64,000 nucleotides of DNA from Bacteroidales bacterium (lineage in GTDB: Bacteria > Bacteroidota > Bacteroidia > Bacteroidales > WCHB1-69): assembly GCA_045132235.1 (NCBI GenBank), contig JBGURX010000019.1, positions 5,756 to 69,755 on the forward strand, read 5' to 3'. Of this stretch, positions 13,730 through 30,454 are shown piece by piece (position 1 is the stretch's first letter; each line of letters begins with the position of its first letter). The position numbers and the translations under genes are program-made. The notes under the pieces were generated by a model. That model did not search any database. It worked only from the letters and a program-made list of their open reading frames with translations, and was not told the origin of the DNA.

Positions 13730-15100
13730 TTATTTCATCATCTCAGCGTAATACTGGTAGAAGTACGGAATGGTTTCGATACCTTTGAAGAAATGCTCCA
13801 GTTTGTAGTTCTCGTTCGGGGAATGAATGGCGTCCTCGCCGAGACCGAAGCCCATGAGGATGGCCTTGGTGCCGAGGATGCGCTCGAAACCGGAGATAAC
13901 AGGGATGCTACCGCCGCTGCGAGTCGGGATGGGGCGTTTGCCGAAGGTCTGCTGGTAAGCCTTCTCGGCTGCCTTGTAGGCGGGCATGTCGATGGGCGAC
14001 ACGTAAGCCTCACCGCCATGGCACGGGGTGACCTTCACCTTCACGCTCTTGGGCGCAATCTTTTCGAAATGCTTCTGGAATAATTTTGAAATTTTAGTGG
14101 AATCCTGGTTGGGAACAAGACGCATTGAAATTTTGGCGCAAGCCTTGGAAGGCAATACAGTTTTAGAGCCCTCGCCGGTATATCCGCCCCAGATGCCACA
14201 AACGTCCAGCGTCGGACGGATGCCGGTACGCTCGATGGTGGTGTACCCCTTTTCGCCATGCACCTGACGCACGTCGAGGGCTTTCTTGTACTCTTCGAGA
14301 TTGAAAGGAGCCTTGGCCATCAGCGCGCGCTCGGCTTTGGAGAGCACCAGCACATCGTCGTAGAAATGCGGGATGGTGATTTCATTGTTCTCGTTCTGCA
14401 GCGAGGCAATCATCTGGCAGAGGATGTTGATGGGGTTGGCGACGGCACCTCCGAAGATGCCGGAGTGCAGGTCCTTGTTGGGTCCGGTCACCTCCACCTC
14501 GAGGTAGCTGAGGCCGCGGAGTCCGGTGGTGATGGAGGGCGTGTCGGTGGCAATCATGCCGGTGTCGGACACGAGGATGATGTCGGCCTTGAGGAGTTTC
14601 TTGTTCTGCTTGCAGAAGTCGTACAGGCTGCCGCTGCCGATCTCCTCCTCCCCTTCCAGCATGAACTTCACGTTGCAGGGCAACTGGTTGGTTTTCACCA
14701 TATATTCAAAGGCTTTGGCGTGCATGAACGACTGACCTTTGTCGTCGTCGGCACCGCGGGCCCAGATCTTACCGTCCTTGACAACCGGTTCGAAGGGGTC
14801 GGTTTTCCACAGCTCGATGGGGTCAACGGGCATCACATCGTAGTGGCCGTAAACCAGCACGGTGGGAGCGGTTTTGGAGATAATCTTCTCGCCATACACC
14901 ACGGGGTTGCCGGCGGTGGGCATCACTTCGCAACGGTCGGCACCGGCGGCGAGGATGAGTTCGCGCCAGCGTTCGGCGCAGCGCACCATGTCGCCCTTGT
15001 GCTCTTCCTGCGAGCTGATGGAGGGGATGCGGATGAGGCTGAAAAGTTCATCCAAAAAACGGTCTTTGTTGGTTTCGATGTATTTCTTTAAGTCTTTCAT
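13730..15100 (-). CDS. M20 family dipeptidase
   Basis: Motifs LIRIPSISS, VLVYGHYDVMPVDP, ARGADDDKGQ and MLEGEEEIGS are present. Confidence 0.85.
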   Translation of the reverse strand: MKDLKKYIETNKDRFLDELFSLIRIPSISSQEEHKGDMVRCAERWRELILAAGADRCEVMPTAGNPVVYGEKIISKTAPTVLVYGHYDVMPVDPIELWKTDPFEPVVKDGKIWARGADDDKGQSFMHAKAFEYMVKTNQLPCNVKFMLEGEEEIGSGSLYDFCKQNKKLLKADIILVSDTGMIATDTPSITTGLRGLSYLEVEVTGPNKDLHSGIFGGAVANPINILCQMIASLQNENNEITIPHFYDDVLVLSKAERALMAKAPFNLEEYKKALDVRQVHGEKGYTTIERTGIRPTLDVCGIWGGYTGEGSKTVLPSKACAKISMRLVPNQDSTKISKLFQKHFEKIAPKSVKVKVTPCHGGEAYVSPIDMPAYKAAEKAYQQTFGKRPIPTRSGGSIPVISGFERILGTKAILMGFGLGEDAIHSPNENYKLEHFFKGIETIPYFYQYYAEMMK

Positions 15101-15132
15101 TTTTAGATTATTAAATTATTAATTCTTTATTA

Positions 15133-15212
15133 AACTATGAAATTATTTAACTATGAAATTATTTAACTATGAAATTATTAAACTATGAAATTATGAATTC
15201 TATGAAAATTAT
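15133..15212. repeat. Tandem repeat, 5 copies of a roughly 16 nt unit (AACTATGAAATTATTT)
   Basis: The core CTATGAAATTAT recurs at 15135, 15151, 15167 and 15183, and a variant at 15200. The array lies between the stop of the 506 aa gene and the start of the M20 gene. Confidence 0.9.
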
Positions 15213-16729
15213 TGGGCTAAAAATTTGATATAGATATGATTAGGGATTAAATTCTGATACGGTTTGAGGGCATAGAAGGCCACGCAGCGTGTTTTGGAGA
15301 GGGCGGTATGGCGCGCCACCAGCTTGGCATTGAGCACACGGTCGAACGCACCCGATCCGTTCTGGAAGAAGTAGCGGCAGGCGGCCTGATTCGACCAGCG
15401 GCCATCCGTCTTGAGGAGGATGAAGAGCTGGTTGTCGTCCAACACACCGCCGGCCTTGACCGCTTTCTGGTACATGCGCAGATTGGCCGTCGAATCGGCA
15501 AAGATGAGGTAATCGCCTTCGCGCATGAAGACTGCGGGGGTGCAGTGCCGCCAACCGGCGTGCAGCACCGGCGCAAAGCTGCCATGTCCGAACCGATAGC
15601 TGCCGCATTCTCCCACCGAGTCGAGGGTATGGCCTGCCGGCAGCAACGAGAGCAGGTGTGCCGTGTCGGTGTCACACTTCACGGCAAAAAAGTGGTAGTC
15701 CAACGAATCAGAAAGTGTAAAACAATGTATCTCACTGCTTTGCAACAAAGAAAATGCTTTTTTCGCTTCTTCCGAAAGATTATTTCCGGTATTGAACTGT
15801 CCTGCATCGGAAAGGTGGAAGCAGGCGTAGTCAACGGCGGCGGCGGGCACCACAGCGGCCGACACGGTCTGTGCATCGGGCTGCTGGTTTTCCAGCTGCG
15901 TAAAGAGCGAGCCGTCCTTCATCACGCTGTAACCGGAGAGGGAGATTTCGCCAGCGGTCACCACCATCTGGTAGGCCGACCAGTCGGCAAGGTTGCCCAG
16001 TGCGGCAAGCGCTTCCTCGAATTCGGAGGAAACATTGGCTTTCTGGCTGGCCACAAAAGCGGCATGGTTCACCACCAGCCAGTTCTGCTTGGGATTTTTG
16101 TCCATCATCTCGCGCAGCGCCTTGAAGCCCTCCTCCTCGGCGATGCTCTTCCGCTGCGAGAGGCAGTCGAGGGAGGCATTCAGCAGAGTTTCATTTTCAG
16201 AAACCGTAAAAGCCCCGTCGTGATAGCAAAACGAGAAGGAACGGTGATGGGTATCCATTCCATAAATATGGTAATCTTTATACGTATGAAAATTATTATT
16301 ATTGATTTCCAATACTTTAAGAAGATTGTCAAAATCCTTTGGAGAGATGCGCAGGGAGAGCAGCAGTGCAAGGCGCCCCTCCACCTCGTGGGCGGAGCAA
16401 GCCAACGGGGAGCTGCCGGCCGGCTGTTCGGTGAACTGCTGCAGGAAATACTCCATGCCGTCGAGCGCGCCCAGCGGCACCGCGTCGGAAAGATAATTGC
16501 GCAAACCGCCTTCCGCCTTGACGAAGGCGTCGTAGTCGTTCACCTGCACCATCATGACAGCATCGGCCGGCACCATTTCCATGGGATCGGCGGTGCTTTT
16601 CCGCAAATGATTGACATAAAAATAGATACCAGCGCCCACGGCGGCGGTCAAGAGAATCAGAGCCACCACCAGCCATCCTTTTTTGTGGGATTTCCGGGGC
16701 TTTTGCATTGCAGTTTCTTCAGTTTCCAT
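15209..16729 (-). CDS. Hypothetical membrane-anchored protein
   Basis: 506 aa with one N-terminal transmembrane segment (GWLVVALILLTAAVGAGIYFYV). Composition is native-like. I recognise no family. Confidence 0.6.
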   Translation of the reverse strand: METEETAMQKPRKSHKKGWLVVALILLTAAVGAGIYFYVNHLRKSTADPMEMVPADAVMMVQVNDYDAFVKAEGGLRNYLSDAVPLGALDGMEYFLQQFTEQPAGSSPLACSAHEVEGRLALLLSLRISPKDFDNLLKVLEINNNNFHTYKDYHIYGMDTHHRSFSFCYHDGAFTVSENETLLNASLDCLSQRKSIAEEEGFKALREMMDKNPKQNWLVVNHAAFVASQKANVSSEFEEALAALGNLADWSAYQMVVTAGEISLSGYSVMKDGSLFTQLENQQPDAQTVSAAVVPAAAVDYACFHLSDAGQFNTGNNLSEEAKKAFSLLQSSEIHCFTLSDSLDYHFFAVKCDTDTAHLLSLLPAGHTLDSVGECGSYRFGHGSFAPVLHAGWRHCTPAVFMREGDYLIFADSTANLRMYQKAVKAGGVLDDNQLFILLKTDGRWSNQAACRYFFQNGSGAFDRVLNAKLVARHTALSKTRCVAFYALKPYQNLIPNHIYIKFLAQ

Positions 16730-16819
16730 TTCAAAAAAAAATCTATTGACAAATAGGCTGCAAATTTACACGAAATTCCCGAAATTTGCGTTATCATTTC
16801 CAAAAAAAGAAAAAATCCG

Positions 16820-16827
16820 TAACTTTG
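16820..16827 (+). promoter_or_regulatory. Candidate -7 box (TAACTTTG)
   Basis: It lies 18 nt upstream of the ATG at 16845. Confidence 0.5.
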
Positions 16828-16844
16828 CACCCAAATTTTTACCA

Positions 16845-18545
16845 ATGAAAAAAATCATCACCCTGCTTATCCTCATTGCCTTCACGATAGGCCTCCACGC
16901 ACAAGCCCCCGCCAAATACTGGGTGCAGTTCAAGGACAAAGAGGGCACTGCCTACTCGGTGAAACATCCCGAAGAGTTCCTGTCGCCCCGCGCCATTGAG
17001 AAGCGGCAGCATTTCAACATTCCCATCACCGAACAGGACCTGCCCGTCAGCGACCGCTACATCCAGCAGCTGATGGCCCTCGACACGAACATGATGCTGC
17101 TCACCAAATCGAAATGGCTGAACGGCGTGACCGTATATACCACCACGGAGAACATCGCGGACAAAATCCGGCAGCTGGACTTTGTGACGCTGTGCGAATG
17201 CACGGCGAAGCTGGATGCCGCGGAGAGTTTCGACTATCCCGTCCGGCCTTACACGCCGCCCGCGCAGACGAAGAGCGTGATGGAGATGCCCGCCCCCGGC
17301 ACTGACTTCCTGTACGGCTATGCCGGCTGGCAGCTCGGGGCCAACCGCGCCCAGTGGCTGCACCGCCTCGGCGCTTACGGCGAGGGCATGCTGATGGTGG
17401 TGATGGATGTGGGCTTCCACAATGTCAACACCATGCCCGCCTTCCAGGCGCTGCGCGACGAAGGTCGTCTGCTGGGCACCAAGAATTTTGTATTTCCGGG
17501 CCGGTCGGTGTTCATCAGCGGCTCGCACGGCACGGAGGTGCTCTCCTGCATCGCCGCCTACCTGCCCGACGAAATCATCGGCACGGCACCCAAGGCATCG
17601 TTCTACCTCGCCAAGACCGAGGACAGCCGCTCGGAAAACAAGATCGAGGAGGACAACTGGGTGGCCGGACTGGAGTGGGCCGACAGCCTCGGCTGTGACG
17701 TGCTCTCCTCTTCGCTCGGCTACTACAAGTTCGACAACAAAAGCCAGTCGTACCAGTATGAGGACCTGAACGGCAAGGTGAGCCGTTCCTCCATCGCCGC
17801 TTCGATGGCGGCCAGCAAGGGCATCGTCGTTTGCGTGAGCGCCGGCAACGAGGGCAACGGCGACTGGCATTACATCACCAGCCCCGCCGATGCCGACAGC
17901 ATCCTCACCATCGGCGCCGTTGACCGCGACTACAAGATTGCGGAATTCTCCTCCTTCGGTCCCACCGCCGACGGGCGCACCAAGCCCGACGGACTGGCCA
18001 TCGGCTCGCAAGCCGTTATCGTGACCCCCGAGAGCAAAGTGGATGCCTCCTACGGCACCTCCTTCTCCGCCCCCATCTTCGCCGGCATGGTGACCTGCCT
18101 CTGGCAGCTCTTCCCCGACAAGACCGCCGCTGACGTGATCAACGCCATCCACCGCGCCGGTCCTCTGTACGACAATCCCAACTACCACTATGGACTGGGA
18201 CTCACCAACTTCGTCACCGCCTACAACCATCTGGCACGCTCCAACGATGCCTCCGTGCTCGCCGCATTCGGCACATCGTCCAGCAACGGCAGCTGCGAGG
18301 GTATCTGCTACGCCAGCGTCGGAGTCAGCAGCTTCACCATCAAGGTCAGCCTCGACGGCACGCCCGTGCCCGGCGAGCAGGTCATCCGCGTGAAAGGCAA
18401 ATCAGTCGGCGACTACCAGTTCTGCAAATTCAAAATCAAACTCCCGAAATGCCCCAAAGGACACGACTACGCCATCGCAAAAGTGCAGGTCATCTGCCCC
18501 GAAGGCATCTCCTACGAACAGTTCATCGGCATATTGCCCAAATAG
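16845..18545 (+). CDS. S8 family serine peptidase, paralog of 12014..13696, without an obvious T9SS tail
   Basis: Internal start MKKIITLLILIAFTIGLHAQ. The propeptide-like YWVQFKDKEGTAYS matches the paralog. The triad contexts are VMDVGF, HGTEVLS and GTSFSAP. The C-terminus is Cys-containing (KLPKCPKGHDYAIAKVQVICPEG). Confidence 0.85.
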   Translation: MKKIITLLILIAFTIGLHAQAPAKYWVQFKDKEGTAYSVKHPEEFLSPRAIEKRQHFNIPITEQDLPVSDRYIQQLMALDTNMMLLTKSKWLNGVTVYTTTENIADKIRQLDFVTLCECTAKLDAAESFDYPVRPYTPPAQTKSVMEMPAPGTDFLYGYAGWQLGANRAQWLHRLGAYGEGMLMVVMDVGFHNVNTMPAFQALRDEGRLLGTKNFVFPGRSVFISGSHGTEVLSCIAAYLPDEIIGTAPKASFYLAKTEDSRSENKIEEDNWVAGLEWADSLGCDVLSSSLGYYKFDNKSQSYQYEDLNGKVSRSSIAASMAASKGIVVCVSAGNEGNGDWHYITSPADADSILTIGAVDRDYKIAEFSSFGPTADGRTKPDGLAIGSQAVIVTPESKVDASYGTSFSAPIFAGMVTCLWQLFPDKTAADVINAIHRAGPLYDNPNYHYGLGLTNFVTAYNHLARSNDASVLAAFGTSSSNGSCEGICYASVGVSSFTIKVSLDGTPVPGEQVIRVKGKSVGDYQFCKFKIKLPKCPKGHDYAIAKVQVICPEGISYEQFIGILPK

Positions 18546-18569
18546 TCCCCCCTGCTAAATCACATCATC

Positions 18570-20078
18570 ATGAAAAGAATACTCCTCTGTATCAGTTTGA
18601 TTTCCCTGCTCACGGTTGCAGGCTTCGCCCAGAAGAAAAAGGGTGACACGCCGGCGGAACCTGTCCAGAAGCACCTGCTGGCCATCCTGAACTACAACGC
18701 CTACTGCACCGACGAGCAGCAGCCCTATATCGAGTTCCAGTTCATCATCGACGGCAGCACCGCCCACTACATTCCCGCCTCTCCCGACACCTACGCCGCC
18801 GAAATCGACATCGAGGTGGAGGTGCGCAAGACCGAAGGCGACGAGCCTGTCGGCAAGCTCCACTACATCCTCGTCAGTCCGCAGACCCGCGACTCAGTGT
18901 CGGAAGAAAAAACATATTTCAGCGACATGCGCAATATGGCCGTCCCCAATGGCGAGTATTACCTTTATTTCAAGCTGAAGGATGTGCATGGCAACAGCGA
19001 CACCCTCCGCTATGTGGACTACCTGCAGGTGAATTATCCTGAAAACGAAGTGGCGGTGTCGGGCATTTCGCTCTACAGCCGCACCTCGCGCAGCGGCGAC
19101 GGCGGTGTCTTCTACAAATATGAGATGGCCACCACCCCGCTGTTCCAGCAATATGCGCCCGAGAATCTGTACGCCCTACCCTTCACTGCCGAAATCTACA
19201 ACACCGACAAAGCGTTAGGAAACGGCAACTTCATCGTCAAGGCCGAAATAGCAGAGCTCGGACGCGCCGCAGCGCCCGAATACACCATGACGCGCACGAT
19301 GAAGGCCGCACCGGCCGCCATCTTCTTCCATATTTTCAACATCTACATGCTGCCCTCCGGCAACTACCACCTCAACCTGTACGTGCTGGATGCCGACTCC
19401 AACCTGCTCGCCAGCTCCGCCGCCTTCTTCCAGCGCAGCAATCCGAGAGTGAAAATCGATCTCGCCAATTATGACAACGTGGTGGTGGAGAACACTTTCG
19501 TGGAAAAGATGACCGACCTCAAGCAGCTGCAGTATGACGTGGCCACCCTCTTCCCCATCGGCAACCGCATCGAGCAGGACTTTTTCACCCAGAACATGAA
19601 AAAGGTGCCGCTCGACCAGCTGCAACGCTACTTCTACAGCTTCTGGGTAAGCCGCAGCCCCAACGACCCCGAAGGGGCATGGCTGGCCTACAAGAAAAAG
19701 GTCGAGTTTGTGAACGAGCGGTACGGCAGCAAGGTCATCGAGGGCTTCCGCACCGACCGCGGCCGCGTGTATCTGCGCTACGGACCGCCGAACACCATCA
19801 CCGAGGAGCCTTACGACCCACAGGCCTACCCCTACGAGATATGGCACTACTATGAAATCGGCCAGCAGACCAACGTGAAGTTCATCTTCTACAACCGCGA
19901 CCTTGTGACCAACAACTACGAGCTGCTGCACTCCGACTACATCGGCGAGCTGCACGACCCCGCATGGCAGATGAAGCTCGTGAAGCGCCTCAACCCCAAC
20001 TCCAACCCCGACATCACCACGCCAGACGAATACTGGGGCGGACATGCCGGCGAATACTACAAGTACAACCGCCAGTAA
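18570..20078 (+). CDS. GWxTD domain-containing protein
   Basis: Signal peptide, and a C-terminal EGFRTDRGRVYLRYGPPNTI...YPYEIWHYY pattern characteristic of the GWxTD family. Confidence 0.7.
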   Translation: MKRILLCISLISLLTVAGFAQKKKGDTPAEPVQKHLLAILNYNAYCTDEQQPYIEFQFIIDGSTAHYIPASPDTYAAEIDIEVEVRKTEGDEPVGKLHYILVSPQTRDSVSEEKTYFSDMRNMAVPNGEYYLYFKLKDVHGNSDTLRYVDYLQVNYPENEVAVSGISLYSRTSRSGDGGVFYKYEMATTPLFQQYAPENLYALPFTAEIYNTDKALGNGNFIVKAEIAELGRAAAPEYTMTRTMKAAPAAIFFHIFNIYMLPSGNYHLNLYVLDADSNLLASSAAFFQRSNPRVKIDLANYDNVVVENTFVEKMTDLKQLQYDVATLFPIGNRIEQDFFTQNMKKVPLDQLQRYFYSFWVSRSPNDPEGAWLAYKKKVEFVNERYGSKVIEGFRTDRGRVYLRYGPPNTITEEPYDPQAYPYEIWHYYEIGQQTNVKFIFYNRDLVTNNYELLHSDYIGELHDPAWQMKLVKRLNPNSNPDITTPDEYWGGHAGEYYKYNRQ

Positions 20079-20668
20079 TGAAACGCACCTTCGACATCGT
20101 GAGCTGCACCCTCGCCGTGCTGCTGCTGTTCCCCTTCGGACTCCTCATCGCGCTGTGCATTGTTTGCGGGTCGAAAGGCGGCGTGTTCTACCGGCAGGTT
20201 CGTGTAGGCAAAGACGGAAAAGATTTCAAGCTACTGAAATTCAGAACCATGCGACCCAATGCCGACCGGCAGGGACTGCTCATCACGGTGGGCAACGACC
20301 AGCGCATCACCCGCATCGGCGGTTTCCTGCGGAAATACAAGATCGACGAGCTGCCGCAGCTGCTCAACATCATCAAGGGCGATATGAGCGTGGTGGGGCC
20401 TCGTCCCGAGGTGCGCCGGTATGTGGAGCTGTATGATGAGCGCCAGCGGCGTGTGCTCACCGTGCGGCCGGGGCTCACCGACTACGCCTCCCTGAAGTAC
20501 ATTTCCGAAAGCGAGCTGTTGGCGAAAAGCGACGATCCCGAAAAAACCTACATCGAAGAAATCATGCCCGCCAAACTGGAGCTAAACCTTCAATATATTG
20601 ACAATCAATCATTAAAAGAAGATCTCAAACTCATCTTCCAAACCCTGTTTTCCATTTTCAAGAAATAG
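20078..20668 (+). CDS. Polyprenyl-phosphate sugar-1-phosphate transferase (bacterial sugar transferase family)
   Basis: MKRTFDIVSCTLAVLLLFPFGLLIAL..., KLLKFRTM, DELPQLLNIIKGDMSVVGPRP. The ATG at 20078 shares one nucleotide with the upstream TAA stop. Confidence 0.85.
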   Translation: MKRTFDIVSCTLAVLLLFPFGLLIALCIVCGSKGGVFYRQVRVGKDGKDFKLLKFRTMRPNADRQGLLITVGNDQRITRIGGFLRKYKIDELPQLLNIIKGDMSVVGPRPEVRRYVELYDERQRRVLTVRPGLTDYASLKYISESELLAKSDDPEKTYIEEIMPAKLELNLQYIDNQSLKEDLKLIFQTLFSIFKK

Positions 20669-20713
20669 AAAATGGGGTAAATGATCGAACGAGAAATGAG
20701 GAATAGTATAGTA

Positions 20714-21277
20714 TCAATATCGCGACCCATTTCCATATACTTTTACAAATGACATTTTCCCAAATCGTATCGTTTTTTCGAGTAAAATCGTGTCTTTATT
20801 GTATAATTTGTTTGTTCGCATTTCCATTTCAGCTTCCCAGTATGAATTTTCATTTGCATTCAAAAAATGATCCGAAGAATGTCTGTATTTTTTGAATTTA
20901 CTTACTCGTATATCCCCATTATCATAATGGCATATCCATGAATTACACTTTCCTCTACGAACAAATATATTTTCTACAACCAACGAATCAGTGTTCTTGG
21001 TTGAGTCAGCGTGTGGATATATTCGCACCTGAAATATGGTGTCATTTTTTAATCCGAAGAAAAAAGGCGGAATGAGCGGCCTCTCATATTCAATTCCGTG
21101 GACATGATTTCCTGAGGAATCAACGATATTATACCCCATATTCTTCTCAGAATTTTTTTCTTTCGGGATGATAATGCTCACATTACTGATTGTATATGCA
21201 AAAGGTAAAAGTCCAAAATAAAACAGCAAGATTTTAATATTCATAATTTTGCACATAATATTACGGATACTTGTCAT
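20714..21277 (-). CDS. Putative immunity protein for the adjacent Rhs-CT toxin
   Basis: AT-rich. Its start overlaps the toxin stop (ATGA at 21274-21277). An N-terminal hydrophobic signal or anchor is present (MNIKILLFYFGLLPFAYT). The call rests on position and coupling only. Confidence 0.55.
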   Translation of the reverse strand: MTSIRNIMCKIMNIKILLFYFGLLPFAYTISNVSIIIPKEKNSEKNMGYNIVDSSGNHVHGIEYERPLIPPFFFGLKNDTIFQVRIYPHADSTKNTDSLVVENIFVRRGKCNSWICHYDNGDIRVSKFKKYRHSSDHFLNANENSYWEAEMEMRTNKLYNKDTILLEKTIRFGKMSFVKVYGNGSRY

Positions 21278-22059
21278 TGACGAGGCCTATATGGAAGTGC
21301 GTATATTTCACTATCCTGCCTTCTTTCTTTAAATGTAATATTTATTGGAATCAACTGGGGATTTTCTTCGTTATAGTATAAAAGGCCATAACATTTATGG
21401 AGACCTTCTATTCTTTGAGTTTTCGAAGCATTTTCCCATGTATAATAATTTTCACCAGTTCGCCAAAGGGTACCCTTATACATTTCAACATTGGCGTTAT
21501 ATTCATCGGACAGGTCATATGCTAAAGGCCACCAAGTTCCTTTTCTTTTCACAAACCCGAGTTCTCCATATTCAAATTGCATTGCATGTTCGGTTTCGTG
21601 TTTTAGCATGGTAAATATAGTTTCACCTCCTAATCTGTCATCATTCGAGAGAAAATAATTGACAAATATCTTTTCCCCATCGGTGCTCAAAAAAGATTTT
21701 GCCGAGTACATATTTTCAACTGTACAATATCTTTTGGCAAAAACATAAACCTCATTAGAATTTTTCAGTTCATTGAATTTGTCTCGGAAAGACCGATCGA
21801 AAACACGACTTATAAAAACAATTAGTTTATCTTCAAATGAATTGTATTCTACTATCCTCCCGTCCGGGTCTATCAACCGCACCGGATTATTCCCACAATA
21901 CGTGTATGGAGAGGTCGAGGGGTACTTGTCGGACATCGGGTCCACGCTGAGCCAGATGGAGAGTGTGGAGGTTCCGGCAAAGCCGGAATGGCGGTGCCGT
22001 GCCAAGTGGGTGGGCGGGGATGCGGTTGTACGGGGATGCGGGGACAGGTTGTGGGGCAT
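21274..22059 (-). CDS. Orphan Rhs/YD-repeat C-terminal fragment with an HExxH metallopeptidase-like toxin domain
   Basis: It contains the Rhs core-end junction LSIWLSVDPMSDKYPSTSPYTYCGNNPVRLIDPDGR, followed by a roughly 190 aa variable domain with LKHETEHAMQF (HExxH). There are no upstream YD repeats, and the region is AT-rich. Confidence 0.75.
   Translation of the reverse strand: MPHNLSPHPRTTASPPTHLARHRHSGFAGTSTLSIWLSVDPMSDKYPSTSPYTYCGNNPVRLIDPDGRIVEYNSFEDKLIVFISRVFDRSFRDKFNELKNSNEVYVFAKRYCTVENMYSAKSFLSTDGEKIFVNYFLSNDDRLGGETIFTMLKHETEHAMQFEYGELGFVKRKGTWWPLAYDLSDEYNANVEMYKGTLWRTGENYYTWENASKTQRIEGLHKCYGLLYYNEENPQLIPINITFKERRQDSEIYALPYRPRQ
21881..21970 (-). repeat. Rhs core-end junction sequence, copy 1
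   Basis: About 90 nt that aligns by eye with 23429-23517, for example ACCGGATT..CACAATACGTGTA.GGAGA...GGGTACTTGTC.GACAT.GGGTC.AC.CT.A.CCAGATGGAGAGTGTGGA. Confidence 0.8.
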
Positions 22060-22228
22060 GGGGCGGAGGTGTTGAATTGTCGATCTGTTGATTTGTTTGC
22101 GGAGAGGTGGGCAAAGATGGAGAACTTGGAAGCTTGAATATTGTGAGAAAACATCTATCCTTCACTTGTAGTCGGCTATTTCTTAAATTGTGGTTTGTTC
22201 ATTGGTGAGATTGCATTTTCGCGCAAAT

Positions 22229-22786
22229 TTATTGCTTTTTGAAGGGGTAAACGATGCCAATCACATCTTCATTAACAACAATGTATTGTTCGCCATTTAC
22301 CATTTCAATAATTTTGCGAGTGCTCTTAAAAGGTTTGCCTGAATACAAATCTTTTACGATAGCATTCAATGAAATATAAAGTTGTTCCCACACATATTGC
22401 TCTCTTTTTAGAATACGTCTGTTTTTTTTATCTATAGCTGCGTAATGAATGCAGCTGTCATTGCAATTCCTGCTCATTGCAAAGATAGCTCGCCCCCCCT
22501 TTGGCCATGTCACATAAATGTTATAGATATCAGCCTCAAGGACATGCCCATACACAGTCCTATTTTCGTCAATACTATCTGATTTGATATGTAATATGAT
22601 GCTCAAAAAAGGTTTACATGGTTCGTTAACATCAGCAAAAATGGAGTCATTATAAATCCCCCGCTCAATGAATAACCATCCGATTTCGTGCCCACCATCA
22701 ACAATCAATGTGTCATGTATCTGTCCCGATACTTCATTATTCCACCACCCTAAAAAAAATAAAATTGTTATAAGATATTTATACAT
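22229..22786 (-). CDS. Putative immunity protein for the second (decayed) Rhs-CT toxin
   Basis: Signal peptide MYKYLITILFFLGWWNNEVSGQ. It starts 2 nt after the toxin remnant's stop, and the region is AT-rich. Confidence 0.5.
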   Translation of the reverse strand: MYKYLITILFFLGWWNNEVSGQIHDTLIVDGGHEIGWLFIERGIYNDSIFADVNEPCKPFLSIILHIKSDSIDENRTVYGHVLEADIYNIYVTWPKGGRAIFAMSRNCNDSCIHYAAIDKKNRRILKREQYVWEQLYISLNAIVKDLYSGKPFKSTRKIIEMVNGEQYIVVNEDVIGIVYPFKKQ

Positions 22787-22788
22787 AA

Positions 22789-23586
22789 TTATTTAAATAA
22801 TAATTCTTCAAGTAGATTATCTTGATTTACTCCCATTGTGTATCCTTTTTTTTGTTCATATATACCAGCTTCATTCGCAACTGAGAATTCACGAAATCCA
22901 GCTGTTATCGCGCTAAAAATCTTGTTAAAATCTTCACTGTTTTTCCATTGTCTATTTGAAAAGGCAAGTGTAGCATCAAAGTATTCTTTATTATCCATGC
23001 CGGGACGCATATTTAACCAACCAGCTAATCCTTCATCACAAACGAGAACCTCAAACATATACGCCTCTACTTCGTTATGTATAGTTCTCCCACATTGGTT
23101 ACGTAGACATTGATATGCATGAAACATTTCATGAGCAATGAATGGTTGTCTCGTTCCAAATTTGATGCTTTGTATTCAAGTATATCGTTTTATCTGGGTT
23201 ATAGAAGCATGGTGCATCTTCACCAGGACATTTTTCGGTAAAAATATAATATGTAACTCCTTTAACATTTAGTGCATCAATAACTTTTTTCCCAATTTAG
23301 TGGCATATATTTTTTCCATTTTATTCCATATAGCAGCGACTTCTGTATTTTCCCCTTCATATGTTTGCCCTGGATTATACTTCTCTGTTCCGATTACCCA
23401 TTCTCTCCCATCCTCATCCACCAACCTCACCGGATTGTTCGCACAATACGTGTACGGAGACACTCCAGGGTACTTGTCCGACATAGGGTCAACACTCAAC
23501 CAGATGGAGAGTGTGGAATGGTAGTGCCGCTTATATGACAGCACCATAGTAACCGATACGGACGATGTGTTCATGGAAACTTTCAT
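22789..23586 (-). pseudogene. Frameshifted orphan Rhs C-terminal toxin (HExxH type)
   Basis: It reads in three frames. Frame a (23586-23269) gives ...STLSIWLSVDPMSDKYPGVSPYTYCANNPVRLVDEDGR...KLGKKLLMH*. Frame b (about 23282-23129) gives IDALNVKGVTYYIFTEKCPGEDAPCFYNPDKTIYLNTKHQIWNETTIHCS*. Frame c (23175-22789) gives IQSIKFGTRQPFIAHEMFHAYQCLRN.... I translated all three by hand. Confidence 0.75.
23429..23517 (-). repeat. Rhs core-end junction sequence, copy 2
   Basis: See 21881-21970. It encodes TLSIWLSVDPMSDKYP..SPYTYC.NNPVRL. Confidence 0.8.
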
Positions 23587-23605
23587 GAAGCATAATTTGA
23601 GCCGT

Positions 23606-23613
23606 CAAAGATA
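23606..23613 (-). promoter_or_regulatory. Candidate -7 box directly upstream of the decayed Rhs fragment
   Basis: The plus strand reads CAAAGATA, which is TATCTTTG on the minus strand. It lies 20 nt upstream of the ATG at 23586. Confidence 0.4.
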
Positions 23614-23826
23614 CAAATCTTTTGGTTACGTTTGCAAGCCATCAGAAAATAATTCGTAATTTTGTCCCGTTGTATTTTCAGATTCTGTTGAAGGATTGGC
23701 ACGGTCTGGAGATGCAGCTAAAATGATCAATTTATGAACAAATGCCGTGATAATTTCCCATTCATCAAGCTCATTCTTCATAAACACTAACAGTGAATGA
23801 AGAGAACCCCGTCGGTTTACGTACAA

Positions 23827-23864
23827 GAAAAAAGCACTTGCAACAAATGTTGCAAGTGCTTTTT
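23827..23864 (-). terminator. Rho-independent terminator after tRNA-Val
   Basis: Perfect 12 bp stem AGCACTTGCAAC-AAAT-GTTGCAAGTGCT (23833-23860). On the minus strand it is followed by a T run. Confidence 0.8.
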
Positions 23865-23867
23865 CAT

Positions 23868-23945
23868 TGGTGGGAACAACAAGGTTCGAACTTGTGACCC
23901 CCTGCTTGTAAGGCAGGTGCTCTGAACCAACTGAGCTATGCTCCC
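23868..23945 (-). tRNA. tRNA-Val (anticodon TAC)
   Basis: The reverse complement reads GGGAGCATAGCTCAGTTGGTTCAGAGCACCTGCCTTACAAGCAGGGGGTCACAAGTTCGAACCTTGTTGTTCCCACCA. The cloverleaf is consistent, with anticodon loop CTTACAA and an encoded CCA. Confidence 0.9.
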
Positions 23946-24053: not shown

Positions 24054-25604
24054 TTATTTGGGCTGTAATTTTATAAATGGGATCATCATCTCCTCCAAAG
24101 AGATGCCGCCGTGTTGGAAGGTGTCTTTGTAATAATTGACATAATAGGAGTAGTTGTTGGGGTACGCCAGGAACGAATTGCCCATGGCAAACACAAACGA
24201 GGAGGTGAGGTTCTCTTTGGGAAGGAAAATCTTCTCGGGCGACTTCACCTCGAAAATCTCCTTCGAGCTGCAGTCGAGGTTGCGCCCCACCTTGTAGCGC
24301 AAATTGCTGTTGGTGTTGCGGTCGCCCACAATCTTCACCGGCCGCTCGATCTTGATGGTGCCATGATCGGTGGTGAGGTAAATCGGCACCTTCTTTTCGG
24401 CCAAGAACTTCACCATCTCCAGCATCACGGAGTTGGCGAACCACGTGGCCGTGACATGGCGGTACGACTTCTCGTCGTTGGCCAGCTCGCGAATCAAATC
24501 CACATCGGTGCGGGCGTGCGAAAGCATATCCACAAAGTTGAAAACCACCACATTGAGCGGATTGTGAAGCATGCCGTGGAAGCTGTCAAGCACCTTTTTT
24601 CCAAAATCCATATTGAGAATTTTGGAGAAAGAGAGTTTTGGATTCTTGCCAAAACGCTTCAAATACTCCTCCAACAGAGGCTGCTCGAACTGGTTCTTGC
24701 CGCCCTCGTCGTTTTCATTAAGCCAATATTTCGGATATTTCCGTTGGATTTCGGAAGGCATCAGTCCGGCGAACATGGCATTGCGGGCGTAGTGGGTGGC
24801 AGTGGGTAAAATACTGTAAAACAGCGTTTCTTCCTCCACATGGTAGTAAGGATGAATCATGGGAAGGATGGCCCGCCACTGGTCGTAGCGCAGGTTGTCG
24901 ATGACAAAAAGGAAGGCGGTCTTTCCCTCCTGCAGGTCAGGGAAAAGTTTTTCTTTTAAGATGGTATGCGAGAAAAGCGGTTTCTCGTCACCGCGCCCGT
25001 TGATCCAATCTTCATAGTGGTTGGCCACAAAACGCGAGAAACGGCTGTTGGCCTCCAGCTTCTGGTCGGCGAGAATCTCGCCCACGCCGGCGTCCTCGAT
25101 GCGTTCGAGGTCGAGTTCCCACTTCACCAGCTCGCGATACACCAGCTCCCACTCGGCGCAGGTGTTGCTGTCTGAAATCTTCATCGCGATGTCGCGAAAA
25201 GCCTGCTGGTAGGCCTGCGTGTTCTTCTCGGTAAGGATGTCGCTTCGGTTGATGTTCTTCTTCAAACAAAGCAGTATCTGATTGGGATTCACGGGTTTGA
25301 TGAGGTAGTCGGCGATGTCGGAGCCGATGGCATCCTCCATGATATGCTCCTCTTCGCTCTTGGTAATCATCACCACGGGAATCTGCGGCCGCACCGCCTT
25401 GAGGTGCTTCAGCGTCTCGATGCCGCTCAGTCCGGGCATGTTCTCATCCAAAAATACAATATCCACCGACTCCTTGTCGATGATGTCAATGGCCTCGTTG
25501 CCGCTGACAGCGGGAATAACGTCGTAACCTTTGTTTTTCAGGAAAATGATGTGGGGCTTCAGAAGGTCGATTTCATCGTCAGCCCAAAGAATTTTCGTAC
25601 TCAT
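24054..25604 (-). CDS. porX: PorX-type response regulator (CheY receiver plus PglZ/alkaline-phosphatase-like domain), T9SS regulator
   Basis: The N-terminus MSTKILWADDEIDLLKPHIIFLKNKGYDV...FLDENMPGLSG...VVMITKSEEEHIMEDAIGSDIADYLIKPVNPNQILL closely matches my recollection of Porphyromonas gingivalis PorX. The length (516 aa) also fits. Confidence 0.8.
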   Translation of the reverse strand: MSTKILWADDEIDLLKPHIIFLKNKGYDVIPAVSGNEAIDIIDKESVDIVFLDENMPGLSGIETLKHLKAVRPQIPVVMITKSEEEHIMEDAIGSDIADYLIKPVNPNQILLCLKKNINRSDILTEKNTQAYQQAFRDIAMKISDSNTCAEWELVYRELVKWELDLERIEDAGVGEILADQKLEANSRFSRFVANHYEDWINGRGDEKPLFSHTILKEKLFPDLQEGKTAFLFVIDNLRYDQWRAILPMIHPYYHVEEETLFYSILPTATHYARNAMFAGLMPSEIQRKYPKYWLNENDEGGKNQFEQPLLEEYLKRFGKNPKLSFSKILNMDFGKKVLDSFHGMLHNPLNVVVFNFVDMLSHARTDVDLIRELANDEKSYRHVTATWFANSVMLEMVKFLAEKKVPIYLTTDHGTIKIERPVKIVGDRNTNSNLRYKVGRNLDCSSKEIFEVKSPEKIFLPKENLTSSFVFAMGNSFLAYPNNYSYYVNYYKDTFQHGGISLEEMMIPFIKLQPK

Positions 25605-27860: not shown

Positions 27861-28340
27861 TTAGAAGGGCAGGTCGTTGGTGTCGCCGCCGGGTTGGAAC
27901 TGCGGGTCGGGATATTGGGCAGGCTGCTGGGGCATGGGCATGGGCTGGCCGTAGGGTTGCTGGGCCGGCTGACCGTAAGGCTGCTGCATGGGTTGCTGCA
28001 TCGGCTGGCCGTAAGGCTGTTGCATCGGCTGGCCGTAAGGCTGCTGCACTTGGGGCTGCTGCATCTGTCCGGGACGGTCGATGCGCCATGCGCGCACGTC
28101 GGTGTACCAGCGGCCGTTGAACTCGCGCGACTCGATGCTCACCGACACGAGGATCATCTCGCCGGGCTGGAAAGTGTCGAGAATCGGGATGCTGTTGGTC
28201 CATGCGGCGATGCAGATTTTGCGCGGATACTGCTCCACCGTTTCGATGATAAAGTTCTGTTTCTTCCATTCGCCTCTGGCGCTGGTGCCGCTCTCCACGT
28301 CAAGTTTCTGGAGCAGCTTTCCTTCAATTTGCAATTCCAT
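27861..28340 (-). CDS. DUF3127-like OB-fold protein with a Q/P-rich repeat linker and a C-terminal DLPF tip
   Basis: Start MELQIEGKLLQKLDVESGTSARGEWKKQNFIIETVEQYPRKI (ATG at 28340). It has 4-5 QQPYGQPM repeats and ends GGDTNDLPF. Confidence 0.7.
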   Translation of the reverse strand: MELQIEGKLLQKLDVESGTSARGEWKKQNFIIETVEQYPRKICIAAWTNSIPILDTFQPGEMILVSVSIESREFNGRWYTDVRAWRIDRPGQMQQPQVQQPYGQPMQQPYGQPMQQPMQQPYGQPAQQPYGQPMPMPQQPAQYPDPQFQPGGDTNDLPF

Positions 28341-28382
28341 TTTACTATATTTTATAATATTCGACAATAAGATTTGAAGCTG

Positions 28383-28390
28383 CAAAAATA
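28383..28390 (-). promoter_or_regulatory. Candidate -7 box for the DUF3127 gene
   Basis: The plus strand reads CAAAAATA. It lies 43 nt upstream of the ATG at 28340. Confidence 0.45.
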
Positions 28391-28529
28391 CGGGAAATTT
28401 GCGAAAAACGGATTTTCTTCAATTTTTATATAAAATATTGATTATTAATAAATTAAATAACTTTTCAACAATTGTTAATAATTTTTTGAAAAAAAAGTAT
28501 GGATGTGCTGTCAGTTCAAAAAAAAGTTG

Positions 28530-28537
28530 TAATTTTG
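28530..28537 (+). promoter_or_regulatory. Candidate -7 box (TAATTTTG) for rpmG
   Basis: It lies 45 nt upstream of the ATG at 28582. Confidence 0.5.
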
Positions 28538-28581
28538 CAGCCGATTTTTTGAGACAAAAAAGAAGCTAAAAAAGTAAAGAA

Positions 28582-28770
28582 ATGGCAAAGAAAAACAAGG
28601 AAGCACGTCAACAAGTGATTTTGGAGTGCACAGAGCAGAAGGCCAGCGGTGTACCGGGTATGTCCAGATACATCACCACAAAGAACCGCAAGAACACTCC
28701 TGAGAGATTAGAGCTGAAGAAATACAATCCGTATCTGAAGCGCGTAACCGTTCACAAAGAAGTTAAATAA
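28582..28770 (+). CDS. rpmG: 50S ribosomal protein L33
   Basis: [62 protein letters not shown] is a typical L33 sequence. Confidence 0.92.
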
Positions 28771-28788
28771 CCTAAATACCTGTAAGAG

Positions 28789-28944
28789 ATGGCAAAGAAA
28801 GTTGTTGCAACATTGAAGAAAGAAGGTGGTGTCACCTATACGCGTGTAATCCGTATGGAGCGCTCACCGAAGACGGGTGCCTACACATTCAAAGAGGCAA
28901 TCGTCGAATCCACCCAAGTTAAAGACTTTTTATCCAAAAAGTAA
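28789..28944 (+). CDS. DUF4295 family small protein
   Basis: It is not in the ORF track (51 aa). My hand translation gives MAKKVVATLKKEGGVTYTRVIRMERSPKTGAYTFKEAIVESTQVKDFLSKK. This family conventionally follows rpmG in Bacteroidota. Confidence 0.75.
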   Translation: MAKKVVATLKKEGGVTYTRVIRMERSPKTGAYTFKEAIVESTQVKDFLSKK

Positions 28945-28964
28945 TATTTTTTTTCATGGCGTTT

Positions 28965-29001
28965 GGAAAAGCTGCACTGCGAAGTGCGGCTTTTCCGTTT
29001 T
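28965..29001 (+). terminator. Rho-independent terminator after rpmG and the DUF4295 gene
   Basis: GGAAAAGCTGCACT-GCGA-AGTGCGGCTTTTCC (one G-U pair), followed by GTTTT. Confidence 0.7.
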
Positions 29002-29060
29002 AAACCCATCCGTAATGCAAAAAAAGTGGCCGTCATCCATTACAATTCCGAATTTAGTCG

Positions 29061-29068
29061 TATCTTTG
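29061..29068 (+). promoter_or_regulatory. Candidate -7 box (TATCTTTG) for the toxin/antitoxin pair
   Basis: It lies 23 nt upstream of the ATG at 29091. Confidence 0.5.
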
Positions 29069-29090
29069 CAGGCTGAAAATTGTAATTAAA

Positions 29091-29309
29091 ATGATTAACG
29101 CCACACAAATGACCCCCACGCAGATACACCTGCTTAAACTGTTCTCTTTCGACAGAAGTGAAAGACGAGCTTTGGAAATTAAGGAGGTGTTAATGCGTTA
29201 TTTTCAAAGCCAGCTTGATGTCGAAGCCGACCGTCTGTGGGACGAAGGAATTTTGGACCAAGAACGCCTTGACCAACTTCGTGGTGAAGACTTGCACGCA
29301 AAGAAATGA
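29091..29309 (+). CDS. Putative antitoxin (72 aa) of a PIN-type toxin/antitoxin module
   Basis: A small helical protein whose stop overlaps the PIN gene start by 4 nt (ATGA). The assignment rests on position only. Confidence 0.5.
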   Translation: MINATQMTPTQIHLLKLFSFDRSERRALEIKEVLMRYFQSQLDVEADRLWDEGILDQERLDQLRGEDLHAKK

Positions 29310-29722
29310 GACTCGTCCTTGACACCAACAGCCTGATACAATGCGTATCCCGCCGCAGCCGCTATCACGGTTTGTGGTTGTCATTTGTTAATGGTCACAA
29401 TCAGTTGTGTGTCACAACTGAAATCCTGAACGAGTACATTGAAATTCTTCAACGGGAAACCAACGAGACATTTGCCTCTCTGGTATTGGAAGTAATACTC
29501 AACAACCCGAACACACAATTTATTCAAACATTTTACAGATTTAATCTTATCGCAGAAGACCCTGACGACAATAAATTCATAGATTGTGCCGTAGCCGCAC
29601 AAGCCAAGTATATTGTTACGGAAGACCACCATTACAACATACTCCAACAAGTGGAGTTCCCTAAAGTAGACATTATCGGATTAGACGAGGCAATGAAGAT
29701 GATTGTACACGACAAGGCTTAA
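29306..29722 (+). CDS. PIN domain toxin (toxin/antitoxin system toxin component)
   Basis: MRLVLDTNSLIQ (first acidic residue), TEILNEY, DPDDNKFIDCAVAAQAKYIVTED (conserved acidic residues); 138 aa. Confidence 0.75.
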   Translation: MRLVLDTNSLIQCVSRRSRYHGLWLSFVNGHNQLCVTTEILNEYIEILQRETNETFASLVLEVILNNPNTQFIQTFYRFNLIAEDPDDNKFIDCAVAAQAKYIVTEDHHYNILQQVEFPKVDIIGLDEAMKMIVHDKA

Positions 29723-29826
29723 TGTCCTAAGGCAGCAGAATCCCCTTGCGCCCCGCGGACAAACTTGAGATCGAAAATTTCGACCTCAAAAATGGGATGG
29801 AATAAACCAATGTCTTTTTCAAATTG

Positions 29827-29921
29827 TTCACCCTAAAGGGGTGAGATTTTCGTAACCCTAGATAAGGCCGTCAGGCCGCAATCTGGGGTAGGCAATGGCC
29901 TCGCGCGCCGCCCGCGGCACG
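29827..29921 (-). repeat. Two-hairpin intergenic element, copy A (inverted relative to copy B at 44002-44099)
   Basis: The reverse complement reads CGTGCCGCGGGCGGCGCGCGAGGCCATTGCCTACCCCAGATTGCGGCCTGACGGCCTTATCTAGGGTTACGAAAATCTCACCCCTTTAGGGTGAA. It aligns by eye with copy B. Confidence 0.7.
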
Positions 29922-29954
29922 GGCGGCAGGTACGGAAGAGCGGAAAGGGTTTGA

Positions 29955-30380
29955 CTACATTTTCTCCAACTCATAGGATATGTCTTCTGTCCACGATTCC
30001 CACCCAAGTTCACCAGTATTATAAGCAACACTTGCATTGCCTGACATCGACATCACTTTTTTTGAAAATTCATTCAGAGTAAGGTCAGCAGAAATTTTTT
30101 CCTGATGTTCTCCATTATACTCCACAAGAATGGACAACGTATTATCTTTCAAGGCATATTCTCCTTCCCAATCAATGCCATCAATATGCAGCGTACATTT
30201 TCCACCATCCCTAAATTCCCACGTCTTCCCCTTTTCAAATACACTTGCATCTTCACCATCTACTATTGCCTTTGTAATCTTCCACTTGCCAACAATCTGT
30301 TTGTCCTTAGAACAGGATGAAAATGAAACCAACGCTGCCATACAAAGGCAGATTATTCCGATTAATCTATTTTTTGACAT
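29955..30380 (-). CDS. Lipocalin-like lipoprotein
   Basis: It has a lipobox (LVSFSSC) and a GKWKITKAIVDGED... pattern. The gene is AT-rich. Confidence 0.6.
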   Translation of the reverse strand: MSKNRLIGIICLCMAALVSFSSCSKDKQIVGKWKITKAIVDGEDASVFEKGKTWEFRDGGKCTLHIDGIDWEGEYALKDNTLSILVEYNGEHQEKISADLTLNEFSKKVMSMSGNASVAYNTGELGWESWTEDISYELEKM

Positions 30381-30446
30381 AACATACTAAATTTTAAGTA
30401 TTTGAACAAACAAAACATTCACCTTGATCTTCAACAATCAACGCTG

Positions 30447-30454
30447 CAAAAATA
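30447..30454 (-). promoter_or_regulatory. Candidate -7 box for the lipoprotein gene
   Basis: The plus strand reads CAAAAATA. It lies 67 nt upstream of the ATG at 30380. Confidence 0.4.

Follow-up and report, generated by a model that had tools for sequence, protein, structure and literature searches.

A short, partly decayed array of probable orphan Rhs toxin/immunity cassettes beside a tRNA-Val gene in a rumen/hindgut-type Bacteroidales bacterium

An AT-rich island carrying two small toxin/immunity cassettes is located in a stretch of 64,000 nucleotides (nt) from the Bacteroidales bacterium assembly GCA_045132235.1 (contig JBGURX010000019.1, positions 5,756 to 69,755 of the forward strand). 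This whole stretch is called the window here, and its first letter is position 1. The island occupies 20669-23867. Its left neighbour is a Bac_transf sugar-transferase gene ending at 20668, and its fixed boundary on the other side is a tRNA-Val(tac) gene, identified with ARAGORN on the minus strand at 23868-23945. A terminator hairpin of this tRNA was found on the same strand at 23824-23869 by repeat and hairpin analysis. The GC content of the island is 0.375, against 0.531 for the remainder of the window. Measured over 300 nt at a time, it is 0.55-0.60 in the flanks; directly past 20668 it drops from 0.57-0.59 to 0.31-0.39, and it goes back up beyond approximately 24050. Both the abrupt change in composition between the sugar transferase and the tRNA-Val terminator and the location at a tRNA locus had been remarked upon in an earlier inspection of the letters alone (the sequence-only reading), and both are borne out.

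All ORFs (open reading frames) of the island are on the minus strand. The sequence-only reading had seen four genes in the order toxin-immunity-toxin-immunity; their orientation stands, but they are not four intact genes, toxin 1 being present in three frame pieces. In cassette 2, beside the sugar-transferase gene, toxin 2 (21274..22059) is an intact orphan Rhs C-terminal toxin (Rhs-CT) of 261 amino acids (aa), as judged from its ORF, its match to TIGR03696 and the family alignment. It is composed of a C-rich leader (MPHNLSPHPRTTASPPTH), a junction at about residues 21-67 and a HExxH domain at residues 68-261, with H154, E155 and H158. The candidate immunity gene Imm2, designated as such by its position 3' of toxin 2, is an ORF of 187 aa (20714..21277) with an N-terminal hydrophobic signal or anchor, the start of which overlaps the toxin 2 stop (ATGA). 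In the tRNA-proximal cassette 1, toxin 1 (22789..23586) is an orphan Rhs-CT pseudogene with a HExxH domain (AHEMFHAYQ), recognized by three-frame translation and by its homologue in a metagenome contig, L001. It is followed by Imm1 (22229..22786), an intact ORF of 185 aa that is designated by its position 3' of toxin 1 and begins with an N-terminal hydrophobic signal, MYKYLITILFFLGWW.

The two toxin genes have a direct repeat in common, the junction, copy 1 of which is located at 23405-23517 and copy 2 at 21857-21969, both on the minus strand. The copies share 113 nt with 82-88% identity. Copy 2 is a GC-rich patch in the AT-rich island: leader and junction together have a GC content of 0.62 in toxin 2 and of 0.49 in toxin 1, whereas the values of the C-terminal domains and the immunity genes are 0.33-0.36. 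On the protein level, toxin 1 matches the NCBIfam model TIGR03696 (Rhs_assc_core) over positions 34-75 of 76 (E 5e-10, 39.8 bits), above the cutoff of 32.5 bits, and toxin 2 matches it over positions 42-75 (E 2e-7, 31.3 bits), just below that cutoff. Both ORFs open with the last approximately 45 residues of the Rhs core, and only 20-35 aa are found 5' of the junction. A profile of 40 family members, compared with the PDB, gave matches confined to the extreme C-terminal ends of solved shells, namely those of mosquito SGS1/SGS4, YenC2, TcdB2-TccC3, the putative Rhs-family protein 8h8a, RHS2, TccC2 and teneurin-like proteins.

In the residue-level alignment, YenC2 658-689 (RWLSADP...NNPLRLTDPDG) corresponds to IWLSVDP...NNPVRLIDPDG of the junction, so that D663 and D686 of YenC2 fall on D40 and D64 of toxin 2, two positions that do not vary across the aligned family. 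In the YenC2/TccC3 structures, D663 and D686 are reportedly the two autoprotease aspartates, and the arginine of 'ARH' would presumably be the catalytic arginine of the TcC/Rhs shell autoprotease. Given the TIGR03696 matches, the PDB profile and the YenC2 alignment, the segment LSIWLSVDP...DPDGR is a true Rhs core end, as the sequence-only reading had supposed for the beginning of both toxin ORFs. The shell that would normally precede such an end was found nowhere in the 64 kb, where the largest ORF is 1030 aa and no Rhs/YD shell was detected. A tblastn search of the window with three Rhs proteins (two Rhs-core ORFs of a relative and a 1943-aa protein) recovered only the junctions and the toxin 2 C-terminal domain. 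The reported absence of YD repeats, of an Rhs shell and of a parent rhs gene from this stretch is therefore upheld.

Toxin 1 is no longer a continuous gene. Its reading frame leaves and then re-enters, and the ORF list contains a first piece of 105 aa (23586..23269) and a later piece of 112 aa (23127..22789), both on the minus strand. Compared with its intact 283-aa homologue in L001 (tox283), toxin 1 has a 1-nt deletion between 23294 and 23293, before a G3A6 run, and four extra bases at 23140-23144. An error in a single assembly is unlikely, because L007, an independent assembly of a public run, is 100% identical to the window over 18000-23914. The 112-aa piece begins at the methionine within AHEMFHAYQ, so that the first zinc ligand is missing, and since it thus starts within the HExxH motif, no active toxin 1 is predicted. 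This motif lies at the same distance from the junction as the HExxH of toxin 2; between the two domains, HExxHAxQ alone is held in common. For tox283 there are only weak matches to DUF6782 and to Peptidase_M91 (13.7 bits, with a cutoff of 25 bits).

For toxin 2, a homologue search gave 712 sequences, the best 120 of which are all 143-385 aa long. In the family motif HETEHAMQFEYGE, the columns of H154, E155, H158, Q161, G165, W176 and D185 are invariant or nearly so; across 40 sequences E155 is invariant, and H154 and H158 are near-invariant (at least 90%). Judged by its residues, this C-terminal motif is a zincin-like signature. In the AlphaFold2 (AF2) model, the C-terminal domain has a confidence (pLDDT) of about 90, with block values mostly of 79-96 from residue 71 onwards and a dip at 111-120. 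The sequence-only reading had proposed HHpred or Foldseek for the C-terminal domains; with Foldseek, no PDB entry matched the toxin 2 model at E<=0.001, and the sub-threshold matches are scattered, weak zincins (OgpA, SPRTN and PepF). Pfam gave no match for either window toxin at E<=1, and Pfam and NCBIfam together found nothing in the toxin and immunity ORFs besides the Rhs core end. Among 40 relatives of toxin 2, two touch Peptidase_M91 (PF14891) and one touches Tox-MPTase2 (PF15638). Neither window toxin rises above a curated cutoff of the M91 or Tox-MPTase families, though the HExxH is conserved. With the C-terminal domain alone, a HMMER search of 1.84 billion representative proteins retrieved 81 clusters, among which there is one full-length carrier: P0160, of 1943 aa, has an SpvB / FG-GAP / TcdB_toxin_midN / RHS_repeat architecture followed by a toxin 2-type domain. 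Several other homologues have a longer true core upstream (YFYHPDHLGSSS...YTFSGKEKD.ETGY.YFGARYY), which indicates that the domain is carried by real Rhs proteins as well.

The two small downstream genes are unrelated to each other, and neither has a family match in Pfam or NCBIfam. Imm1 is 88% identical, on the amino acid level, to the gene that follows the intact tox283 of L001. For Imm2, no more than six homologues were found (53-100% identity), and every one of them begins with MN (MN(I/S/V)..LL); its likely start is therefore the ATG at 21244, which gives a protein of 176 aa (MNIKILLFYFG). An AF2 model of Imm2, made from six sequences, has a pLDDT of 40, with an N-terminal helix at residues 5-27 as its sole confident feature. 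A homologue of toxin 2 (P0002, 76%) and one of Imm2 (P0122, 67%) each have a longest contig of 8,262 nt and are probably encoded on one and the same contig. From their hydrophobic N-termini, Imm1 and Imm2 would be exported or membrane-anchored proteins, which makes the periplasm or cell envelope the probable site of toxin action.

The same chromosomal site could be followed in close relatives. The metagenome contigs L001 and L002, which represent a sister strain, have flanks that are 96.5-98.3% identical to those of the window; for the block of the tRNA-Val and the PorX-like gene, the identity with L001 is 96.5%. Between tRNA-Val and the sugar-transferase gene, L001 contains six modules, as compared with two in the window. 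Five of them point to the tRNA, with toxins of 270, 272, 259, 259 and 283 aa, and the sixth, toxin 2/Imm2, is directed oppositely to the other five, as in the window. Among the L001 cassette toxins, a CHAP domain is above the Pfam cutoff, and JAB-like and metallopeptidase-like domains are below it. In both L001 and L002, toxin 2 is conserved with 96% identity and Imm2 with 99.5%. Together with the leader, they are part of a block (window 18000-22079) that is 98.3% identical to L001, so that only 22080-23827 is variable. Window cassette 1 is the tox283/imm185 cassette of L001 (89.8% identical), inverted relative to the flanks: window 22136-23517 aligns to L001 1898-3285, while window 23391-23709 aligns to L001 9398-9716 (82.6%), where the same head is used for tox270. 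The two alignments overlap within the junction only, with copy 1 as the point where the homology switches. The slot and the orientation of one cassette therefore differ between two strains, and the exchange point falls within the junction. The ends of the inversion between the window and L001 are not marked by inverted repeats.

Related arrays were also found elsewhere. In the contigs L003-L006, Rhs-core genes with a true core (...YTFSGKERDEETGYSYFGARYYNSSLSIWLSVDP) are followed by at least six modules of 258-283 aa, each with a small gene. A DUF6088/AbiEii toxin-antitoxin pair lies amid this orphan cassette array (at about 11500-13100 in L003). A scan of the genome collection with a degenerate junction pattern gave 57 stretches with 114 junction copies. 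With few exceptions, they come from Bacteroidales metagenome-assembled genomes (MAGs) of rumen, hindgut or faecal origin, and two are binned as Clostridia and Lachnospiraceae. Three classes can be distinguished among the copies: long cores, with up to more than 1059 aa 5' of the junction (L051) and some with an ARHYH variant; short orphans that begin at TFSAKE; and short orphans that have a C-rich leader followed by a start at ARH(Y/R)H. The L051 core itself carries the ARHYH...LSIWLSVDP junction. There is, in addition, a 'long orphan' class in L003, L064 and L100, consisting of Rhs genes of approximately 650-770 aa that occur in tandem or mirrored and begin near one core position (...TFALP.E.Q.YTFKM.Y.YDSW...).

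Only one of the 57 stretches shares a flank with the window: JAFXTS010000016.1 of MAG RGIG6737 (L064), a sister species, with 80.5% identity over 14920-20667. Its syntenic site, beside the sugar-transferase gene, carries a pair of Rhs-core ORFs with YD repeats (769 and 652 aa), two orphan modules, a truncated junction remnant and several small genes for proteins with a signal peptide. The site is thus an Rhs locus in the wider lineage, with orphans only in the window. No precise cassette insertion or deletion distinguishes the window from RGIG6737 next to the sugar-transferase gene. The comparison of this locus across relatives that the sequence-only reading had proposed thus shows a different number of cassettes in the window, L001 and RGIG6737, and between the window and L001 a change in the slot and orientation of one cassette.

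The orphan modules have a characteristic beginning. In 50 of the 116 junction-bearing homologues examined, the protein begins with the MP of the leader (MPHxLS...P.ARHYHS.LSIW), from which the N-terminus of toxin 1 (MKVSMNT...YKRHYHS) differs. A DNA alignment of 49 orphan leaders is strongly conserved from CTCCC.CGGCGCGGCACTACCA on, including the ATGCCCCAC start and its ATG. As Bacteroidetes promoters follow another consensus than that of sigma-70, the Bacteroidetes -7 box TAnnTTTG was counted directly rather than by a sigma-70 scan; it is present 5' of 13 of the 49 leaders, compared with 1.3 +/- 1.2 in shuffled sequences. Toxin 2 is preceded by an imperfect version (CATCTTTG). The array head upstream of toxin 1 (23606-23635, minus strand) is marked by the motif GCAAACGTAACCAAAAGATTTGTATCTTTG, found once in the window with none expected, and has a -7 box (TATCTTTG) approximately 20 nt 5' of the toxin 1 ATG.

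Two optional insertions occur in the leaders. The first, an in-frame insertion of 18 nt (SGFAGT) that borders the junction on its 5' side, was read from the sequence of toxin 2 and contains a perfect 7-bp hairpin, TTCCGGC-TTT-GCCGGAA (TTCCGGCTTTGCCGGAA; 21972-21988, minus strand). This insertion is found at the identical position in about 10 of the 49 orphan leaders and in the true-core fragment P0058, the loci including L001, L009, L023, L049, L058, L059 and others; inspection of the 49-leader alignment by eye gave no compensatory changes among the hairpin variants. The second insertion is a CATTGT-repeat block (...CATTGTACATTGTTCATTGTCAATTGTACATT...), translated as IVHCSLSIVHSP, in leaders of L001 (approximately 3300-3400 and 4840-4900), L013, L014 and L017.

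The head motif leads to a further group of loci. It is present in L001, L002 and L007, that is, in the locus family of the window itself, and it recurs in 11 further loci; in 10 of these, a tyrosine recombinase of 350-376 aa is encoded divergently, immediately upstream. These array-linked recombinases consist of a Pfam Phage_integrase domain and a SAM-like N-terminal domain; other relatives of them are plain prophage integrases. The recombinase link of the head motif belongs to these related loci and not to the window. With an array-associated recombinase as the query, tblastn had no match in the window and L001-L007, and the ORFs near the island include none of this kind. Scanning metagenomes with an alignment of recombinases gave 80 loci; in 10 of them, a junction on the minus strand is located 279-382 nt 5' of the recombinase start. 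Some elements are compact and inserted between housekeeping genes, with a recombinase, a head cassette and one or two MP-leader cassettes (L039/L042, L049 and L029, the last of which ends near a tRNA-Met). No att-type direct repeats were found around complete recombinase elements. In L039+L042 (approximately 10080-10210) and in L058 (1963-2000), the arrays end in a leader and a junction that is truncated or contains a stop and borders directly on host DNA, which places the distal array boundary inside the junction repeat.

In several of the junction-bearing recombinase loci (L100, L105, L085 and L114), an Rhs-core gene and orphans of the opposite orientation are located beyond the recombinase. 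These loci are quasi-palindromic, with the recombinase between two oppositely oriented arms, each of which contains a gene for an Rhs 3'-portion (approximately 650-770 aa) and orphan cassettes; in L100 (Ga0310691_10000206), the inverted junction repeats are about 190 nt long with 81-87% complementarity. The order in L069-L071 is an inverted six-cassette array, a recombinase, a 541-aa Por_Secre_tail protein and a 3140-aa SpvB/TcdB/RHS gene. In a full-text search of the literature, no paper was found that joins a tyrosine recombinase to polymorphic toxin cassettes in Bacteroidetes.

The island is quite probably a short, partly decayed array of two orphan Rhs-CT toxin/immunity cassettes in a rumen/hindgut-type Bacteroidales. 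Its anatomy and homology, the rearrangement from strain to strain and the presence of the same modules behind Rhs genes elsewhere are observed. The last point, as seen in L003-L006, the Rhs-core genes at the syntenic site of RGIG6737 and the six differently arranged modules of L001 support the orphan Rhs-CT interpretation of the sequence-only reading. A cassette consists of a short leader, approximately 115 nt of GC-rich core-end DNA in which the arginine and the two aspartates are still encoded, an AT-rich, zincin-like HExxH toxin domain and a small gene for a signal-bearing, putative immunity protein. The junction probably serves as a recombination handle: copies of it would recombine, by which a cassette would move to another slot. 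It could also come to lie after a full-length SpvB/TcdB/RHS gene in another part of the genome, and thus change the toxin that is deployed, while the immunity genes would protect against relatives deploying matching toxins. In this strain, cassette 1 has lost its toxin to two frameshifts and kept its candidate immunity gene, and cassette 2 is intact. Toxicity, immunity, expression and the mechanism of recombination are what we infer for the cassettes from this anatomy and distribution.

Several points weigh against such a reservoir of orphan cassettes. The identity among the junction copies is just 80-91%, a low value for homologous recombination to be efficient. As toxin 1 is dead, half of the reservoir is unusable without repair. 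Both toxin domains stay below the curated family thresholds, no significant structural neighbour was found for the toxin 2 model, and the metallopeptidase activity of toxin 2 is predicted from the HExxH and the invariant columns only. Likewise, the immunity function of Imm1 and Imm2 is predicted from their position. The dN/dS ratio between strains is 0.5-0.7 for every gene, a range that does not separate selection from drift. Matching rhs parents are seen in related MAGs and metagenomes; for the host, the 64-kb window is covered, and it contains none. The interpretation is also amended by the conserved, promoter-like head of the tRNA-proximal module: as this head goes together with a tyrosine recombinase in other loci, a portion of the island may derive from a recombinase-associated cassette array instead of from simple displacement behind a parent gene.

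The contrast between a frameshifted toxin 1 and an intact Imm1, together with the 99.5% conservation of Imm2 between strains, could also mean that the immunity genes are the selected cargo of an AID-like island and the toxin parts decaying hitch-hikers. Co-oriented arrays of short, low-GC orphan immunity genes are established in Bacteroidales (10.1101/471110, PMC12247911), and some related arrays end in toxin-less runs of small signal-peptide genes (L029 3916-5684; RGIG6737 5459-7122). However, toxin 2 is intact with every family-invariant residue kept, and most homologous modules of other genomes have full-length toxin ORFs with a conserved ATG. We consider this a serious possibility, if somewhat short of an even one, and since it is compatible with a reservoir of orphan cassettes, both can hold. 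Membership of the recombinase-associated orphan-immunity system rAID-1 is a different matter. The co-oriented short genes, the GC content below 41% and the repeated inter-gene sequence are three of its published hallmarks (PMC12247911, 10.1101/471110), but the defining XerD-like recombinase is absent, the repeat is coding Rhs core-end sequence and not an intergenic motif, and every second gene is a toxin domain. With no recombinase detected by tblastn in the window and L001-L007, membership was rejected, and it seems highly improbable. The modules might, on the other hand, be independently expressed short proteins that act in a toxin-antitoxin-like manner inside the producer and are not silent spare parts. 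The MP start in 50 of 116 homologues, the conserved leader ATG, the excess of TAnnTTTG upstream of the leaders with one such box in the array head, and the overlap of the toxin 2 stop with the Imm2 ORF start all fit with this, as do internal promoters that drive orphan rhs-CT/rhsI with toxin-antitoxin-like behaviour in Salmonella (PMC7043789). The -7 box of toxin 2 is imperfect, though, and the exported-looking immunity proteins point to a target in the envelope, out of reach for a cytoplasmic, leaderless toxin, which makes this explanation quite unlikely.

The tyrosine recombinases give rise to two further interpretations. At least the tRNA-proximal cassette could be the relic of a recombinase cassette array that targeted the 3' end of tRNA-Val and became inert upon loss of the recombinase. 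The divergent Phage_integrase-family gene beside the head motif in 10 of 11 loci outside the family of the window, the compact elements with two or three cassettes between housekeeping genes (L039/L042, L049), the end of L029 near a tRNA-Met and the inversion of the variable block between the window and L001 can be understood in this way. The island, moreover, abuts the tRNA 3' end, and a direct repeat just 3' of Imm1 (22195-22210, minus strand) is a 14/16 near-copy of the tRNA-Val 3' end and its flank (23860-23875). By rough estimate, about 0.01 chance matches for this 16-mer are expected within the island; the near-copy recurs in L001 (1958-1973), there in reverse orientation with respect to the tRNA. 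Either an att remnant or a chance match could account for it. In a tRNA-integrated island, an integrase gene and direct repeats of the tRNA 3' end at both borders would be expected; here the near-copy sits inside the island, not at the far border, and no integrase was found. Neither the window nor L001-L007 contains a recombinase or a fragment of one, complete elements lack att-type direct repeats and the inversion endpoints lack inverted repeats, close relatives of the recombinase are also ordinary prophage integrases, and toxin 2/Imm2 are located in the conserved 98% block outside the variable one. A relic of this kind is thus rather doubtful. In a more ambitious form, recombinase, promoter-bearing head and junction would make up a site-specific system for the exchange of Rhs toxin tips, integron- or shufflon-like, in rumen and hindgut Bacteroidales, of which the window would be a recombinase-less relic. 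With the layout of L100, L105, L114 and L069, an inversion between two junction copies would exchange one deployed toxin for another with all DNA retained, and the inverted, slot-shifted toxin 1 cassette relative to L001 would be a footprint of recombinase activity. This proposal seems unlikely on the present evidence.

Stored orphan Rhs cassettes are already known as a kind, so the biology of the window is what one would expect. Activation of orphan Rhs toxins by recombination has been described (Koskiniemi et al. 2014, PMC3967940), and in Salmonella internal promoters make an orphan Rhs-CT/RhsI act as a toxin-antitoxin pair (Starsta et al. 2020, PMC7043789). Like the enterobacterial orphan rhs-CT/rhsI modules of Salmonella Typhimurium, E. 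coli and Dickeya, the cassettes of the window are truncated at the 5' side, with a core end, a variable toxin and a small immunity gene, and they have a GC-rich core, an AT-rich tip, a shared junction that is open to recombination and the possibility of internal expression. They are unlike them in forming an island without a parent gene adjacent or within 64 kb, and in having a uniform breakpoint at ARH(Y/R)H, a conserved C-rich leader with ATG and a promoter-like head of their own. They also differ from the PAAR/VgrG-linked Rhs of type VI secretion systems, as the parent class in this lineage is SpvB/FG-GAP/TcdB_midN/RHS, sometimes beside a protein with a C-terminal domain of the type IX secretion system (T9SS) type.

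Arrays of polymorphic toxin cassettes were reportedly catalogued by Zhang, Iyer, Aravind and co-workers in Biology Direct in 2012. The island is comparable to them in its tandem toxin-tip/immunity cassettes, its conserved pre-toxin junction and, in related arrays, its diverse toxin domains; it differs in that the toxin 2 domain is below every Pfam Tox-MPTase and M91 threshold. The rAID-1 arrays of orphan immunity genes in gut Bacteroidales (Ross et al. 2019, 10.1101/471110; PMC12247911) are similar in their low GC content, their short, co-oriented genes and their repeated linker, and loci related to the window carry a tyrosine recombinase at the head. Unlike in rAID-1, toxins are present, the linker is a coding core end and there is no recombinase in the window; where a recombinase is present, it is divergent from the array. 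In Salmonella Dublin, antibacterial activity of SED_RS06335 is attributed to an M91 domain at the Rhs C-terminus (PMC13556075). By analogy, the window toxins may resemble this effector in having a HExxH metallopeptidase-type toxin in that position, which is no evidence for membership, since both are sub-threshold to M91 and the toxin 2 model has no significant PDB match.

Some other features of the window may be mentioned. The right neighbour of the tRNA is a gene for a PorX-like response-regulator/PglZ protein (24054-25604). This gene and that of an S8 peptidase with a weak Por_Secre_tail match (L001 18330-20012) point to a T9SS-bearing Bacteroidales host. A second stretch of lower GC content (0.43-0.45) is found at 28000-31000, in which a PIN_3-domain protein (29306-29722), a lipocalin-like/DUF5640 lipoprotein (29955-30380) and a DUF3127 protein with a Q/P-rich repeat tail (27861-28385) are encoded. 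At 43134-43754 (minus strand), a lone ORF of 206 aa without a match in Pfam lies in a 1-kb AT-rich pocket (GC 0.36, with approximately 0.53 around it) and has the appearance of an insertion of one gene.

Orphan Rhs cassettes presumably allow bacteria to change the toxin that is fired at neighbours and to bank immunity against relatives. The island is a clean natural example of such cassettes from a poorly studied, uncultured, rumen-type group of Bacteroidales. At one chromosomal site, three relatives have two, six and more than four cassettes, respectively, with one cassette in a different slot and orientation. The locus also draws attention to an uncharacterised, compact family of HExxH toxins that has no structural neighbour in the PDB. 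If the link between the array head and the recombinase is functional, a site-specific mechanism would be added to a process that has so far been ascribed to homologous recombination.

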